DNA of 64,000 nt, taken from NCBI GenBank assembly GCA_963747235.1, contig CAVVEU010000003.1, positions 1 through 64,000 on the forward strand, in the 5' to 3' direction. Made by a program: the position numbers and the translations under genes. The notes beneath the pieces are model-generated. The model saw nothing but the letters and a program-made list of their open reading frames with translations, searched no databases and was not told the origin of the DNA. This stretch comes from an uncultured Candidatus Rokubacteria bacterium (GTDB taxonomy: Bacteria > Methylomirabilota > Methylomirabilia > Rokubacteriales > CSP1-6). Positions 109 to 25,337 of the stretch are shown in pieces; position 1 is the stretch's first letter, and each line of letters opens with the position of its first letter.

Positions 109-219
109 GGCCGTCCCGCTCACCACCCGGTCCTCCGGGAGCAAGCGAGACCCGTTAAGGCCCGAAGGCGGAGCCGCGCATGCGGCGACCGGCGCCAAAG
201 CGCCGCGGGCCCCCTCGGG

Positions 220-1030
220 CTACTTGGTCAGCGGCAGCTCGATCGCCGCGACCTGCTCGCTGATCGCCGGCGCATCGGCGCGGCGCCGGTCGAGCGACAG
301 CTCCGCCGTAGGTCTCGGCCGATCCGCCCCCAGCGGCCGTCGGCGAAGATCTCCAGCGGCTGGAAGCGCGGACTTGTAGTCCATCTTGGCGCTGCCCGGC
401 ACCCAGTAGCCGAGGTAGACGTACGGCAGCCGCATCTCGGCGGCCATGGCGATATGGTCGAGGATCACGTAGCTGCCGAGACTGTCGCGGTCGAGGTCCG
501 GGGTCGAAGAACGAATAGACCATCGACACGCCGTCCGACAGCACGTCGGTCAGGCAGACCGCCACCAGCTCGCCGTCCCGCACGTACTCGACCACCATGC
601 TGCGGACCGGCGATTTCTCGATCATCGCCGCGAACTCGCTCATGTCCATGTCGGCCATGCCGCCGGTGGCGTGCCGGGCGTCGAGGTAGCGGCGGAACAG
701 CTGGTATTGCGCCGGGGTGGCGCAGGGCGACCGCGGCGCCCGCTCGATATGGGCATTGCGCCGCATCACCCGCCGCTGGCTGCGCGTGGGCGCGAAGGCC
801 CCGACGACGATCCGCGCCGACAGGCAGGCCGAGCAGCCGGCGCAGGACGGCCGGTAGAGCACGTTCTGCGAGCGCCGGAAGCCCTGGTGCGACAGCACGT
901 CGTTCAGGTGGCAGGCACCCTCGCCCTGCAGCGCGGTGAAGAGCTTCCGCTCGACCTTGCCGGGCAGGTACGGACAGGGCTGAGGCGCTGTCACATAGAA
1001 CTGATGCGACTGTGGTAGGCTGTGGCGCAT
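220..1030 (-). CDS. bpt: Aspartate/glutamate leucyltransferase (arginyl-tRNA-protein transferase family), frameshifted near 500 and probably again near 360
   Basis: [47 protein letters not shown] and SMVYSFFDP; continues in another frame as [17 protein letters not shown]. Confidence 0.9.
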
Positions 1031-4470: not shown

Positions 4471-5373
4471 ATGTCGAACTCCAGCCGATCTCTTTCCGAC
4501 CTGAAGAGTGACGGAAGCCCTATTGAAGCCTGTCGGGCCAAGGGGGCCGTTGCGGCCACGATCCTGGTTGTCCTGCTGACGGCGCTGTACTGGTCGATTC
4601 TCGGCGGCCTGGTGACCCAGTGGTGGGATGACGCCAACTACACGCATGGATTCCTCGTGCCCGTGTTCAGCGGCTTTCTGGTCTGGCGGGAACGCGCCAG
4701 GCTGATGGCCGTGGTCCCCCGCGGCACCCGCCTGGGCCTGGCGGTGCTGGTCGGGGGTATCGGCATCCTGTTCCTCGGAAGCATCGGCTCCGAGAACTTT
4801 CTGATGCGCAGCTCCCTGATCGTTGTCCTCGCCGGACTGGTGCTGTTTCACCTGGGCGCGCGGGTCCTCCGAATCGTCTTCTTTCCGCTGGCCTTCCTGT
4901 TCTTCATGGTGCCCCTGCCGGGCGTGGTCTTCTACGCCGTGACGTTTCCTCTCCAGCGGCTCGCCGCCGAGCAGGCCGCCTGGACCCTCGACCTGCTCGG
5001 GGTGCCCGTCCTGCTGGACGGCAACGTCATTCACCTGAGCCAGATCACCCTGGGCGTCACCGAGGCGTGCAGCGGGATCCGTTCGCTCATCTCGTTGCTG
5101 GCCAGCGCGGTCGCCTGGGCGTACCTCACGCTGCCCCTGGGTTTGATCGCACTCGCCTTTGTGCTCCTGGCAATCCCGATCACCATCTTCGCCAACGCGG
5201 CCCGCGTGGTCGCCACCGGGCTCATCGGGCAATGGTTCGGCGTCGAGTACGCCAGCGGGTTCTTCCACGAGTTTGCCGGCCTGGCCGTCTACTCCCTGGC
5301 CCTCGCCTGCCTGGGCGGGGTCTACACCGTCGCCCGCGGGCTCGTCAGGCCGGGCGGGAAGCCTCGCGATTGA
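4471..5373 (+). CDS. xrt: Exosortase (EpsH/XrtA family)
   Basis: Multi-TM protein with YTHGFLVP, VTEACSGIRSL (catalytic Cys), ANAARV (Arg) and FFHEFAG (His). Confidence 0.92.
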   Translation: MSNSSRSLSDLKSDGSPIEACRAKGAVAATILVVLLTALYWSILGGLVTQWWDDANYTHGFLVPVFSGFLVWRERARLMAVVPRGTRLGLAVLVGGIGILFLGSIGSENFLMRSSLIVVLAGLVLFHLGARVLRIVFFPLAFLFFMVPLPGVVFYAVTFPLQRLAAEQAAWTLDLLGVPVLLDGNVIHLSQITLGVTEACSGIRSLISLLASAVAWAYLTLPLGLIALAFVLLAIPITIFANAARVVATGLIGQWFGVEYASGFFHEFAGLAVYSLALACLGGVYTVARGLVRPGGKPRD

Positions 5374-20854: not shown

Positions 20855-21400
20855 GTGACGATGACTCGCGTCTTGAAACTCGGCGCCGCCTTGGTGGCGC
20901 TCACCGCATCCACCACGTTTGCCCAGACCCCCGCGCTCGCTCCCGCCGCGGTCCAGAATGGAGCCACCGTGAGCCTCGAGTACACGCTCAAGGACGATGG
21001 CGGCCAGGTGCTGGATTCCAACAAGGGGGGCGCCCCGCTCGTCTTCGTGCAGGGCCAGCGCCAGATCATCCCGGGCCTCGAGCGGGAGCTCGTCGGCATG
21101 CGTCCCGGCGAGGAGAAGAAGGTCGTGGTCGCGCCGGACGATGGGGGTTACGGCCCGGTCGTGCCGGGGGCCCAGCAGGAAGTGCCGAAGGACGCCATCC
21201 CGAAGGAGGGGCTGAAGGTGGGCACGCAGCTCACCGCCCGCAGCGGATCCGGCGAGGCGCGGCCCGTGACCGTCACGGAGATCAAGGACACGACGGTGGT
21301 GCTCGACTTCAATCATCCCCTCGCGGGAAAGACCCTCTTCTTCGACGTGAAGATTCTCGGGGTCCAGGCGCCCGCCACGCCCGCCCGCCCCTCCCCGTAG
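20855..21400 (+). CDS. Exported SlyD/SlpA-type FKBP peptidyl-prolyl isomerase
   Basis: Signal peptide; VSLEYTL, IIPGLE, LDFNHPLAGKTLFFDV. Confidence 0.9.
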   Translation: MTMTRVLKLGAALVALTASTTFAQTPALAPAAVQNGATVSLEYTLKDDGGQVLDSNKGGAPLVFVQGQRQIIPGLERELVGMRPGEEKKVVVAPDDGGYGPVVPGAQQEVPKDAIPKEGLKVGTQLTARSGSGEARPVTVTEIKDTTVVLDFNHPLAGKTLFFDVKILGVQAPATPARPSP

Positions 21401-21407
21401 CGCGGCT

Positions 21408-22535
21408 ATGTCCCTCCGCCGCGCCGCCCTCTGGACGCTCCTCGCCTCGAAGCTGATCGCGGGCTGGGGCGTGCAGTGGGACATCCAGTGGCACGTGCTG
21501 ATCGGGCGTGACTCCTTCTGGATCCCCCCGCACGTCATGACCTACGCGGGGGTGGCGCTGGCGGTGCTCGTGAGCTTCGGAGTCCTGGCGTGGGAGACCC
21601 TGGTCGGCCGCCCGGGGGTTCGCGTTCTGGGCCTCAGCGGGACGCGCGGCTTTCACCTCGCGGCCTGGGGCATCGCCCTGACCGTCCTGGCCGCGCCGAT
21701 CGATGATCTCTGGCATCGGCTCTTCGGCCTCGACGTCACGCTCTGGAGCCCGCCGCACCTGCTCGGCATCGTGGGCGCGGTGATCAACTCCTTCGCGTGC
21801 CTGGTGATCGCCCGCGAGGTCTACCCCGAGGGGTCGCGGGCCCGGCTGGCCGCGCTCGTGCTCACCGGCGCGGTGCTCTACGGCGGGCTACACCTGACGG
21901 TGGACCCGTCCACCCGCGTGGCCTATCTGCACGGCGGCGTGCTCTTCTACACGCTGGCCATCCTCTCGGCGCTGATCCTGCCGCTGGCCCACGTGCCGAC
22001 CGCCCGGCTCTCGAACAGCCGCTGGGCGCCCATCACCCTGCTCCTCGTGCTCATCGGGCTCGGCCTCATCGGCCAGCAGATCGCGCAGAAGGGCTTCGAG
22101 GTCATGAAGCCCGTCTCGGTGATCGAGGAGGAGATCACGAAGGATCCGACGTCGCCGATCGCGGTGGCCACCCTGATGGCCCGCAAGGAAGGCGTCCCGG
22201 CCGGCCAGACCGGCGGGCGGCGCCACCTGTTCGCCCTCTGGCCCGCTCTGGCAATGGCGCTGGTGGACGCCCGACGCCGCCCCATCGCCGCCACGCTGGC
22301 CTACGCGGCCGCGCTCTTCGCCCTGCTCGCCTGGCGCCTGCCCTCGCGCCCCTCGCTGGCCGCGATGGCCCCCGGGCTCCCCGAGACGCTCGTCGCCCTG
22401 CTCCTGACCCTCGCCGCCGCCCTGGTCGCCGCCTACGCGGCCCGCTGGCTGTCCGACGCCCTCGCCGGGGGTCAGGTCTTGAATTACGACATTTCGAGCG
22501 CGGCCATGAGGTCCCGGGAGAAGGTCCCGGTGTAG
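21408..22535 (+). CDS. Polytopic membrane protein with two D-x3-H-x12/13-H motifs
   Basis: WDIQWHVLIGRDSFWIPPH and DDLWHRLFGLDVTLWSPPH. Confidence 0.8.
   Translation: MSLRRAALWTLLASKLIAGWGVQWDIQWHVLIGRDSFWIPPHVMTYAGVALAVLVSFGVLAWETLVGRPGVRVLGLSGTRGFHLAAWGIALTVLAAPIDDLWHRLFGLDVTLWSPPHLLGIVGAVINSFACLVIAREVYPEGSRARLAALVLTGAVLYGGLHLTVDPSTRVAYLHGGVLFYTLAILSALILPLAHVPTARLSNSRWAPITLLLVLIGLGLIGQQIAQKGFEVMKPVSVIEEEITKDPTSPIAVATLMARKEGVPAGQTGGRRHLFALWPALAMALVDARRRPIAATLAYAAALFALLAWRLPSRPSLAAMAPGLPETLVALLLTLAAALVAAYAARWLSDALAGGQVLNYDISSAAMRSREKVPV
22468..22494. repeat. Single arm of REP family A
   Basis: GGGGTCAGGTCTTGAATTACGACATTT, identical to 46353-46379. Confidence 0.9.
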
Positions 22536-23361
22536 ACCTCCTCCACCGGCCCCTGAGCCGGATGGACCAGTCGGGCCGCACGTCCACGGAGAGCTCGCCG
22601 CCCGGCATCCGCACCGTCACCAGCCCGTGATCGCAGAGCCCGTTCTTGACCGCGGCGCACGCCACCGCGCTCGAGGACGACCCCGACGCCAGCGTCCAGC
22701 CCGCCCCGCGCTCCCAGATCAGGATGTCCACCATCGAGCGTGAGGCCACCCGCGCCCACTGCACGTTGATCCGGTTCGGAAACGCGGGGTGATGCTCGAC
22801 CTGCGGCCCGAGCCGGCGGACCAGCGCCTCGTCGAGGCGGTCGGTGAAGATCACGCAGTGCGGGTTGCCCACCGAGACCGCGGTGATCAGCAGGGTCTCG
22901 CCGGCCACCTGGAGCGGGATCTTCACCACCTCGCGCTCGGGACCGTTCATGGGGATCTCGGGCGCCACGAACGTGCAGCGGCCCATCTCGACGGTGACCA
23001 GGTTCATCCGCCCGTCCGTCACGTGGCAGCGGCACTCCACCCGCCCGCCCATGGTGTCCACCGTGAAGGTGTCGCGCTTGGCGTGGCCGTGATCGTGGAG
23101 GTACTTGGCGAAGATGCGCAGGCCGTTGCCCGACTTCTCGGCCTCGCTGCCGTCCGGATTCAGGATGCGCAGCCCGAAGTCCCCGCCGGCCCAGGCCGGG
23201 ACGAGGAGCAGGATGCCGTCCGAGCCCACGCCCCAGTTGCGATCGCAGATGCGCATCACCTGGCCCGGCGTCAGCGGCGACGGCAGATCGGCGCCGTTGA
23301 TCACGATGTAGTCGTTGCCGAGCCCGTGGCCCTTCACGAAGGGGATCATGCGCGGCATCAT
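22484..23361 (-). CDS. dapF: Diaminopimelate epimerase-like protein, Ser/Ser active-site variant (frameshift near 22550)
   Basis: KGHGLGNDY, NPDGSEAEKSGNGLR, SVGNPH, ERGAGWTLASGS. Confidence 0.85.
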
Positions 23362-24163
23362 ACCTTCCGGAGCGCGCGGAGCCAATCGCGCGCGCGCTCG
23401 ACCGGCCGCCGCACGTCGCAGGGCAGCCGATGCCCCCACTTCTCGCGCGAAGCGCGCCAGCGCCGCCTGCCGCTGGGCCAGATCCTCGCGGCGGCGCCAC
23501 CGGCGCGTTCTCGCCGGTCCGCGTGCCCCCGCCCCGGTGCACGAAGGGCGCGTTCACCACCGCGCAGCGCAGGCCCAGCTCCCGCACCGCGAAGGAGAGA
23601 TCGCGGTCGTAGCCGTGGAAGAAGCCGTAGCCCTCGTCGAAGCCGCCGACCGCCTCCAGGACGTCGCGCGCGAGGAAGAGGCAGACGCCGTCCACCACCG
23701 CCACCTCCGCCCGGGGGCTGCGGAGCGTCGGCGCGCCCTCGAGGCAGTGCACGATGGTCCGGCCCACGTAGCGGCCGTCGCGCCGGAGGCGCTGCACGCC
23801 GTAGAGGCCGGCCAGGCCGATCCGCGCGGTGGACGCCGAGCGCGCCCTGCAGGCGCTCCAGCCACCGCGGGTCGCGCAGCTCGGTGTCGTTGTGCAGGAA
23901 GCAGAGCAGCTCCCCGGTGGCGAGCTGCGCGCCCTGGTTGAGCGCGCGGATGAGCCCCACGTTCTCGTCATTGCGAAGGTAGCGGAGCGGGAGCGCGCGC
24001 GCGAGCCGGTCGCAGGTAGTCCACGCGTCTCGTCGTCGGAGGCGTTGTCCACGACGCAGAGCTCGAACGGGCCCTGGGTGGCCTGCAGGCTTTCCACGCA
24101 CGCGCGGGTGAGCGCGGGCTGGTTGTGCACCACCAGCACCACGCTCGTCGTCACGGCCGCCAC
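23358..24163 (-). CDS. GT2 glycosyltransferase (frameshifts)
   Basis: VVDNASDD, ALNQGA, CFLHND, GGFDEGY..YDRDLS. Confidence 0.82.
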
Positions 24164-24193
24164 GGCAGCGCCGTGGCCCGGCCCCGCGGCCGC

Positions 24194-25337
24194 CTACCGC
24201 TCGGAGAGCGGGACGTACTTCAGGTCGAGCGCGCCCGAGTAGTCGGAGCGAGGCCGGATCAGGCGGTTGTTGCCGTGCTGCTCGAGCACGTGCGCGGCCC
24301 AGCCCGCGATCCGGCTCATGGCGAAGATCGGCGTGAACTGGTCGGTGGAGATCCCCATGGCCGCGTAGGCCGCGCCCGAGTAGAGATCCACGTTGGGGAA
24401 GATGTGCTTCTCGCCGCCGACCACGCGCACCATCGTGTCGAGGATCTCGCACCTTGCTGGTGTCGCCCACCTGCTGCCCGAGCTCGAGCGCGAGCCGCTT
24501 GAGGTGCTTCGCCCGCGGGTCCTCCACCCGGTACACGCGGTGGCCGAAGCCCATGATGCGCGCCTTGTCGGTGAGCGCCTTCCGGATCCACGCCTCCGCC
24601 TTGGCCGGGTCCTTGATCTTCTCGACCATGAGCATGACCTGCTCGTTCGCCCCGCCGTGCAGCGGGCCCTTGAGCGCGCCGATGCCGGAGACCGCGGCCG
24701 AATGCAGATCGGACAGGGTGGCGGCGGTGACGCGGGCCGCGAAGGTCGAGGCGTTGAACTCGTGATCGGCGTGGAGGATGAGCGCGGTGTCGAAGGTCTT
24801 GGCCGCGAGCGGCGTGGGCTTCTTGCCGCTCATCATGTAGAGGAAGTTGCCCGCCAGGTTGAGCTTCGGGCTCGGGGCGATCGGGGGCTTGCCGCGGCGG
24901 ATGCGCTCCCAGGCCGCGACCAGCGTCGGGAGCTGGGCGGTGAGGCGCAGGGACTTTCGCAGCGTCGCCTCGCGGCTATTGTCGGCCGCGTCGGGGTCGA
25001 ACGAGGAGAGCGCCGACACGCCGGTCCGGAGCACCTCCATCGGGGTCGTCTTCCTGGGGAGGAGCTTCAGCATCGCGAGGAGCTTCGGCGGGAGCTTGCG
25101 GTTCGACGTCGAGGCCAGCGCCTTCAGGTGCGTGTCGAGCTCCTTCCGCGACGGCAGCCGCCCCTGCCACAGGAGGTAGGTGACCTCCTCGAAGGTCGAG
25201 TGGGCCACGAGGTCGTCCACGTCATAGCCCCGGTAGATGAGCCGGCCCTTGTGCCCGTCGATGAAGCAGATCTCCGACGGAGAGACGACGACGTCCTCGA
25301 GACCAGCCTTCAGGGGATTGACCGCGGCGTCCGTCAT
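24194..25337 (-). CDS. gltA: Citrate (or 2-methylcitrate) synthase (frameshift near 24450)
   Basis: HADHEFNAS, GPLHGGAN, GFGHRVY, FPNVD, RIAGWAAH. Confidence 0.9.

Follow-up and report, generated by a model that had tools for sequence, protein, structure and literature searches.

A 64,000-nucleotide stretch of DNA from an uncultured Candidatus Rokubacteria bacterium (contig CAVVEU010000003.1, positions 1 to 64,000; hereafter the window) carries a gene for a membrane protein of 375 amino acids (AA, from the translation) with two Asp/His/His triads. This protein, which stands alone, is probably distantly homologous to the four-helix bundle that forms the catalytic core of PmoC and AmoC, the C subunits of particulate methane monooxygenase (pMMO) and of ammonia monooxygenase (AMO), two copper membrane monooxygenases (CuMMO). 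It would be a membrane cuproprotein and probably an oxidase. Four methods, each weak to moderate when taken alone, agree on AmoC/PmoC as the nearest known family. A previous reading of the DNA letters without database searches (the sequence-only reading) had proposed a distant relationship with subunit C. This proposal is supported: AmoC/PmoC come first in a profile search of PDB sequences, in profile-profile comparison, in a Foldseek search with the N-domain model and among protein-language features. The gene and its parts are as follows.

21408..22535, + strand: gene for the PmoC-like membrane protein (first-start open reading frame (ORF) of its frame, stop codon included)
21480..21533, + strand: motif 1, D25-x3-H29-x4-R34-D35-x6-H42, from regular expression and translation; counterpart of the PmoC CuC site
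21702..21758, + strand: motif 2, D99-x3-H103-x5-D109-x5-P115-x-H117, from regular expression and translation; positional counterpart of the PmoC CuD site, with Asp replacing Asn
21408..21830, + strand: N-terminal four-helix bundle (N-domain), residues 1-141, with helices 2-31, 40-66, 80-106 and 115-138; the conserved PmoC-like module
21831..22466, + strand: C-terminal domain, about six transmembrane helices and a soluble loop (residues 234-268); poorly conserved

Two Asp/His/His triads and their conservation

A regular expression search of the window protein gives exactly two matches, D25-IQW-H29-x12-H42 and D99-DLW-H103-x13-H117, with 74 residues from the Asp of motif 1 to that of motif 2. 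These are the motifs and spacings named by the sequence-only reading. In 200,000 shuffles of the protein, at least one D-x3-H-x12/13-H occurs in 0.98% and at least two in 0.003%. PmoC shows the same two spacings, D-x3-H-x12-H followed 71 residues on by N-x3-H-x13-H. The pmoC genes of Methylomirabilis-like genomes read DGTWHQTVIRDTDFTPSH, and the PmoC motif cited in the sequence-only reading is essentially right. The sites of M. capsulatus PmoC are described as CuC (Asp156/His160/His173) and CuD (Asn227/His231/His245), with Arg165 in the second sphere (PMC12576850), and those of N. briensis AmoC as Asp134/His138/His151 and Asn205/His209/His223 (PMC12801151). The D-DLW-H-x13-H that had been taken for a second copy of the metal site is present; rather than an extra element it appears to be the counterpart of CuD, whose Asn227-x3-His231-x13-His245 it matches in position and spacing.

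The window protein is not the orphan that had been supposed. It belongs to a very large unnamed family, with at least 1837 representatives at E<=0.001 in an exhaustive search of 50%-identity representatives (646 at <=1e-10 and 69 at <=1e-30). A word-indexed search yielded at least 1561 proteins at E<=0.001 among 8000 candidates scored. The family alignment consists of the query and 49 of 150 listed representatives, all near-full length (338-551 AA); the other 101, mostly shorter fragments, were omitted. Mean column identity in these 50 sequences is 18%, and the invariant columns (W24, D25, H29, R34, H42, G88, D99, H103, G107, D109, P115 and H117) all lie within the first 141 residues. They include the six Asp/His ligand positions, whose lack of conservation would have spoken against the sequence-only reading. 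As an unselected check, all 150 best representatives were aligned to the N-domain hidden Markov model. All six ligand positions are covered in 76 of the 150, and 74 of these 76 read D,H,H,D/N,H,H. Counts per site are 96/98 for D25, 98/98 for H29, 98/99 for R34, 99/100 for H42, 114/115 for D99, 111/113 for H103 and 107/108 for H117.

Fold and internal duplication

The AlphaFold2 model of the full protein and the model of the N-domain have a predicted local distance difference test (pLDDT) score of 93.6 and 94.3 respectively. In the model D25 and H29 are found at the end of helix 1 and H42 at the start of helix 2, D99 and H103 at the end of helix 3 and H117 at the start of helix 4, with Asp and His of each triad one helical turn apart. 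These helix-end positions put both triads at the same end of the bundle. Positive charge is found at the N-terminus (RR) and in the 67-79 loop (three Arg), which by the positive-inside rule would place the triads at the outer (periplasmic) end.

Internal duplication of the helical hairpin is clear, as previously claimed from the letters. Family profiles of hairpin 1 (residues 1-70) and hairpin 2 (75-145) match each other in hhalign with a probability of 96.5% (E 8.9e-10, score 48.3), while the reversed control scores 8.5 and the best of 30 shuffles 18.3. The same test of one PmoC half against the other detects no duplication (probability 1.5%). The family retains a bundle symmetry that PmoC has lost.

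Relationship to PmoC and AmoC

An hmmsearch of 177,635 PDB sequences with the profile of the 50 members retrieved 15 distinct ones at E<=10. AmoC takes the first three places (E 7.5e-4, 1.8e-3 and 3e-3), three PmoC are found at 0.028-0.15 and the remaining matches are unrelated membrane proteins (E 0.023-1.6). Motif 1 is aligned to DASWHQVIIRDTSFTPSH of AmoC. The N-domain profile also has 15 PDB matches, of which the first 13 are all AmoC/PmoC, but with E values of 0.075-1.0. The Pfam AmoC model is weakly matched by 7 of the 50 members (best E 0.0011) and no other Pfam family by more than two; it also finds a paralogue in a related genome (E 9.8e-4, 14.9 bits). As a single query, the window protein has no match in Pfam (E<=1), NCBIfam or the PDB sequences.

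For profile-profile comparison, pmoC genes from Methylomirabilis-like genomes in the phylum of the window genome led to 1033 relatives, of which 40 were picked for spread. The family profile aligns with this PmoC/AmoC profile over 114 columns (hhalign score 38.6, E 2.1e-4, probability 46%). The alignment pairs D25/D131, H29/H135, R34/R140, D35/D141 and H42/H148 at the first site, and D99/N202, H103/H206, D109/E212, P115/P218 and H117/H220 at the second. None of 42 controls reaches this score (17.9 and 17.4 for reversed profiles; maximum 24.7 and median 15.0 for 40 column shuffles). Family alignments made from different sets of members give E values of 6.3e-5, 7.4e-5 (spanning both motifs) and 1.1e-4 (N-domain). 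Hairpin 1 alone matches PmoC significantly (E 2.4e-6, probability 88.8%).

A Foldseek search with the N-domain model, one of the checks suggested by the sequence-only reading, places AmoC/PmoC at ranks 1-6 of 350,542 PDB chains (probability 0.98-1.00, E 0.024-0.13). The N-domain superposes on PmoC/AmoC over 129-138 of 145 residues at 3.1-3.6 A. VIA-align maps model residues 1..145 onto 7s4h_C 132..273 and 9pxf_G 110..251, with offsets that set D25/H29/H42 on Asp156/His160/His173 and Asp134/His138/His151, and D99/H103/H117 on Asn227/His231/His245 and Asn205/His209/His223. In protein-language features, the named ESM-Atlas clusters nearest to the N-domain are AmoC (0.88 and 0.87), a lead only. 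A comparison with CREST-family folds had also been suggested; this superfamily, of the alkaline ceramidase/PAQR type, has seven helices and a His/Asp/Ser metal site. No CREST, PAP2 or ceramidase chain is found among the 50 matches listed in each of the structure searches.

Several results weigh against this assignment. No single score is strong: hhalign probabilities are 46-65% and no Foldseek E value is <=0.001. Hairpin 2 alone does not match the CuD half of PmoC significantly (E 0.15); the proposed equivalence of motif 2 with CuD is drawn from collinearity, from spacing and from the type of ligand. In a review, the loop joining the CuD histidines is described as poorly conserved even across 679 xmoC sequences (PMC13058606). 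With the full-length model, the best Foldseek match is cytochrome bd (E 0.016, TM about 0.2) and PmoC is not listed, nor is it among the 50 matches listed in a wide VIA search; only the isolated N-domain model, unlike the full-length one, brought up PmoC. Finally, the architecture differs. In the window protein the bundle is N-terminal (1-141) and followed by six more helices, whereas PmoC/AmoC have about 240-290 AA and a C-terminal bundle (solved chains align at 103-132 through 246-276).

These results could also be read as convergence, in which an unrelated duplicated helical hairpin acquired the same D-x3-H-x12-H spacing. Four-helix bundles are common and many unrelated ones score higher structurally. 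The statistics are modest (the hhalign probabilities given above and Foldseek E values >0.01), an independent sequence signal is found in the first hairpin only, and PmoC halves show no detectable duplication, unlike those of the family. However, four methods of different kinds rank AmoC/PmoC first across whole libraries, and no shuffled or reversed control attains the real hhalign score. The distance between sites (74 and 71 residues) and the x12/x13 asymmetry are both reproduced. Besides the ligands, there is agreement with PmoC at R34 and D35, at the Trp preceding the first His, at the acidic position +6 from the first His of the second site and at a Pro located two residues ahead of each final His. 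We therefore regard convergence as quite unlikely and homology to PmoC as very probable.

The window protein is a member of a PmoC-like superfamily and not a PmoC. It shares with PmoC/AmoC (PF04896) the four-helix bundle, the D-x3-H-x12-H of CuC, followed about 71-74 residues on by an [N/D]-x3-H-x13-H that may correspond to CuD, the Arg-Asp pair at +5/+6 from the first His, and a CuC triad with Arg at His+5, in which D25, H29, R34 and H42 are invariant in 50/50 family sequences. It differs by an Asp for Asn in the second site, by hairpins that are still recognisably duplicated, by its position below the curated PF04896 threshold (26.7 bits) and by the lack of XmoA or XmoB in its genome. It is classified as PmoC-like because the active-site features agree while the threshold, the architecture and the partners do not.

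The C-terminal domain shows some structural likeness to S components of energy-coupling factor (ECF) transporters (root-mean-square deviation 4.9 A, 13% identity), at a score where helical bundles may share mere arrangement. Unlike ECF systems, there is no ECF A or T gene near the window gene, and this domain is not conserved in sequence.

Distribution of the family

The family has no Pfam or NCBIfam model. The 120 listed homologues are all unnamed or called 'hypothetical protein', and 4 of them carry NCBI names of Methylomirabilota metagenome-assembled genomes. A cluster look-up for family names returned 'hypothetical protein' only, and literature searches covering listings and abstracts turned up no publication describing the family.

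Members are present in 118 of 251 Methylomirabilota genomes (two of which, G217 and G076, are flagged as unpublished) and in 58 of the 104 high-quality ones, with up to five copies per genome. By taxonomic family, they occur in 98/158 genomes of the window's own family, in 15/21 of a second and in 1/20 of the Methylomirabilis-like family, the one with genuine pmoC. In species-representative genomes, two scans gave 494 and at least 599 matching stretches. The phyla concerned are Chloroflexota, Acidobacteriota, Verrucomicrobiota, Bacteroidota, Gemmatimonadota and Myxococcota, and further members were found in Eremiobacterota, Dormibacterota, Deinococcales, Actinomycetota and Binatia. Cultured hosts include Ktedonobacter racemifer DSM 44963, Dictyobacter spp., Puia dinghuensis and Segetibacter aerophilus.

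Some members are atypical. A divergent subfamily (L112 = G068:C10 and L113-L116) combines D-x3-H-x12/13-H with D-x3-H-x16-H, as in DGWSHRH... and DMAWHQV..., and one of its members sits in a Methylomirabilis-like genome that also holds a true pmoC. A genome of the window genome's taxonomic family (G071:C365, loci L092/L195) carries a divergent CuMMO operon in a Rokubacteria-type background. Its xmoC-like gene (Pfam AmoC E 4.3e-48, 34-37% identity to Methylomirabilis PmoC) has both ligand triads and is followed, at the xmoA position, by a 255-AA ORF. The same genome holds four copies of the stand-alone family.

Partner proteins and copper genes in relatives

In other phyla, a tightly linked partner gene lies directly downstream of the family gene in 46 of the 77 loci from the second scan (L117-L193). 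It exists in two forms. The short form (about 190 AA, same strand) is found at 25 loci, all in Chloroflexota, and combines a signal peptide with an Ig-like domain and one transmembrane helix at the C-terminus. The long form (about 500 AA) is found at 21 loci in Acidobacteriota, Verrucomicrobiota, Bacteroidota, Gemmatimonadota and Myxococcota, and its start overlaps the stop of the family gene by 4 nt in at least two loci (L167 and L186). Short and long forms are homologous (probability 98.2%, E 4.5e-14). In the 15 of 21 long partners that were aligned, the His opening an HVGSPDV stretch, just past the hydrophobic core of the signal peptide, is invariant. The protein continues with the Ig-like domain, a pair of transmembrane helices and a periplasmic domain in which seven His do not vary. 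Examples are as follows.

L167:5191-6696: long partner
L147:5061-5654: partner in Ktedonobacter racemifer

The partner corresponds to no Pfam family. Its sole PDB match is a 'copper resistance protein' (E 0.016), and one of six partner or fused domains weakly matches CopC (E 0.026). PmoB has a beta-2TM-beta layout, with two transmembrane helices between beta domains, and the long partner, with its Ig-like domain, two transmembrane helices and His-rich second periplasmic domain, is built alike. This likeness is one of topology, since Monooxygenase_B is matched at E<=1 by none of the 8 long partners scanned.

At three loci of three genera, a gene for the copper chaperone PpoB2 (E 1e-63 to 1e-66) lies directly upstream of the family gene on the same strand, and in two of them a P1B ATPase gene with an HMA domain is inserted between the two. 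The PpoB2-(P1B ATPase)-family gene rows are:

L102:2578-7426
L103:2603-5049
L108:5877-10804

The family members at these loci carry a fused N-terminal periplasmic Ig-like domain (weak FixH match, E 0.0095), which does not match the partner family significantly (probability 4.6% and 0.2%). PpoB2 (COG5486), a membrane copper chaperone, is described as supplying copper to the oxidase whose gene shares its operon, and the tyrosinase PpoB1 as encoded in the same operon as PpoB2 (PMC2855505). The three relatives resemble such clients by their position directly behind a PpoB2 homologue. However, PpoB1 is a soluble type-3 copper protein of unrelated fold, and no such PpoB2 context is found in the window.

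When longer fused forms of the family were sought, one protein of 661 AA came up, without a domain. In a 491-AA representative (P0258), the C-terminal extension consists of an extra transmembrane helix, a stretch 'ALAHDPGQG...', a beta-rich domain and, at its end, a further transmembrane helix. The extension may represent a fused domain of the partner type; in profile comparison it does not match the partner family significantly (probability 1.1%).

A CopCD-like role is a serious rival to an enzymatic one, although we consider it unlikely. By this analogy the protein would take up, buffer, sense or pass on periplasmic copper, in relatives together with the Ig-like partner. Relatives join a polytopic membrane protein, through adjacency or fusion, to an Ig-like domain in the periplasm whose conserved His closely follows the signal peptide. 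This arrangement, with His/Asp sites predicted at the periplasmic face of the membrane protein, is similar to the CopC-CopD / YcnJ copper uptake pair. The weak matches of the partner and fused domains to CopC, FixH and the copper resistance protein fit this role, as do the copper ATPase and chaperone neighbours at 3 loci. On the other hand, no member matches the Pfam CopD or CopC models at E<=1 (for CopD, in any of the 50 members), the single weak CopC match being in a partner, and the window protein is partnerless. An importer behind an exporting P1B ATPase would be futile, and PpoB2 is described as serving an enzyme client (PMC2855505). R34-D35 and the aromatic shell (W24, W28, W102 and W113) repeat the surroundings of the PmoC active site. 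A further argument against copper handling is that the PmoC bundle is not known to offer a transport path.

Long-form paralogues and other possible chemistries

Long-form paralogues (about 500-600 AA) have an extra C-terminal soluble domain and are often found as tandem pairs (L095:4004-7390, L097:3204-4760, L098, L099 and L110). In several genomes their neighbours encode RmlD-DegT fusions, dTDP-sugar isomerase, GT2, Wzi and undecaprenyl-diphosphate synthase. This raises another serious possibility, a Zn, Fe or Mn enzyme with non-redox chemistry, for example hydrolytic or transfer reactions with an envelope lipid or with a glycan on a polyprenyl carrier as substrate, on the outer side of the membrane. 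Asp/His/His triads also bind Zn or Fe, and the CuC site reportedly held Zn in early pMMO crystals. In addition to the glycan genes next to the paralogues, the window gene itself lies near dapF and envelope genes (exosortase, AsmA and polysaccharide deacetylase). However, the glycan context is limited to a paralogous subfamily, and the neighbourhoods of short forms are not conserved, the commonest neighbour being present in 13 of 81 loci. No likeness to known membrane hydrolases appears among the listed structural matches, and all weak family-level leads point to copper proteins. A non-redox enzyme of this kind with another metal appears very unlikely.

Proposed function

From homology and from the context in relatives, copper is the probable metal. 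If the homology with PmoC/AmoC holds, the two triads, together with R34-D35 as the second-sphere Arg-Asp pair, would reproduce CuC and CuD, and the bundle would bind copper, one ion or two, where the membrane meets the periplasm. The copper could serve redox chemistry, most likely an O2-dependent oxidation of a hydrophobic, membrane-soluble substrate that would enter where the bundle adjoins the C-terminal domain with its six variable helices. Three points favour catalysis over trafficking: the second-sphere Arg-Asp pair and the aromatic shell show the same conservation as those of PmoC, the chaperone and exporting ATPase encoded upstream of some relatives suggest a client enzyme, and a four-helix bundle is not known as a transport path. 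Catalysis as opposed to copper handling nevertheless remains a tentative choice, just short of even. The genomic context adds to the reservations expressed above. Copper genes accompany only 3 of the 103 family loci examined and are absent from the window, the partner was not found in the window genome (no match with one partner profile, E 0.071 with the other), and the envelope-glycan clusters of the long-form paralogues suggest another chemistry.

A broader proposal, which we consider doubtful, is that the family and its periplasmic partner make up a widespread, so far unrecognised class of membrane copper oxidases with two components, which would be either the sister group or the ancestor of CuMMO. 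If this were true, the family would keep a symmetrical duplicated CuC/CuD bundle ancestral to PmoC, and the Rokubacterial protein would be a partner-less, single-polypeptide version of the catalytic core. For the disputed active site of pMMO/AMO it would then serve as a minimal model that can be expressed, and XmoC trees could be rooted with it as a true outgroup.

The site of methane and ammonia activation in pMMO and AMO is presented as a long-standing question, now centred on the CuC/CuD pocket (PMC11725843, PMC13058606, PMC12801151). Both are fragile, difficult to express and made of several subunits. A single-polypeptide family with both triads and the second-sphere Arg, found in cultured bacteria, could make the chemistry of such a site testable. 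It also displays the bundle as an internal duplication, undetectable in PmoC, and is a candidate non-CuMMO outgroup; a published CuMMO phylogeny was rooted with Thaumarchaeota as 'logical outgroup' (PMC6215863). Because the family is abundant in soil phyla (see the Methylomirabilota and species-representative counts above), a copper-dependent activity there, if true, could be ecologically relevant.

Genomic context of the window gene

The PmoC-like gene has a G+C content at third codon positions of 0.95, in a window of about 70% G+C. It is the single family copy in the window genome. The sequence-only reading had described it as stand-alone, with no pmoA/B nearby, and this holds: no CuMMO gene is found among the 45 window ORFs scanned against Pfam, and the 88% complete genome has no AmoC, AmoA (AMO, PF02461) or PmoB match above cut-off. 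For Monooxygenase_B (PF04744) this absence is weak, as the search matched in no control genome either. The survey of neighbours for copper genes, also suggested by that reading, found none among the same 45 ORFs.

The adjacent upstream gene is:

20855..21400, + strand: FKBP-type peptidyl-prolyl isomerase with a signal-peptide-like N-terminus (Pfam FKBP_C E 1e-14)

Its stop lies 7 nt before the start codon of the PmoC-like gene, and the two are possibly co-transcribed, although the evidence is weak. Contigs with relatives 90-99% alike are found in four RNA libraries from four studies, and two of them bridge the FKBP-gene junction; DNA carry-over is possible. The dapF gene lies downstream on the opposite strand. 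In the 81 closest loci the most frequent neighbours are acyl-CoA dehydrogenase (13), DapF (9), short-chain dehydrogenase/reductase (SDR, 9), FKBP (8) and TetR (6), and the neighbourhood of the window gene is conserved among near relatives only.

The region is rich in envelope and exopolysaccharide functions, since it includes an exosortase EpsH gene (4471-5370, + strand) and, elsewhere in the 64-kb window, genes for a large TPR protein, a PilZ protein, a MacB/FtsX permease, an AsmA-like protein and a polysaccharide deacetylase. Finally, a single frame of 659 AA (23361-25337, - strand) combines a citrate synthase domain (12-292) and a GT2 glycosyltransferase fragment (449-505). It may correspond to a frameshift, a fusion or an artefact of the long open frames of high-G+C DNA.

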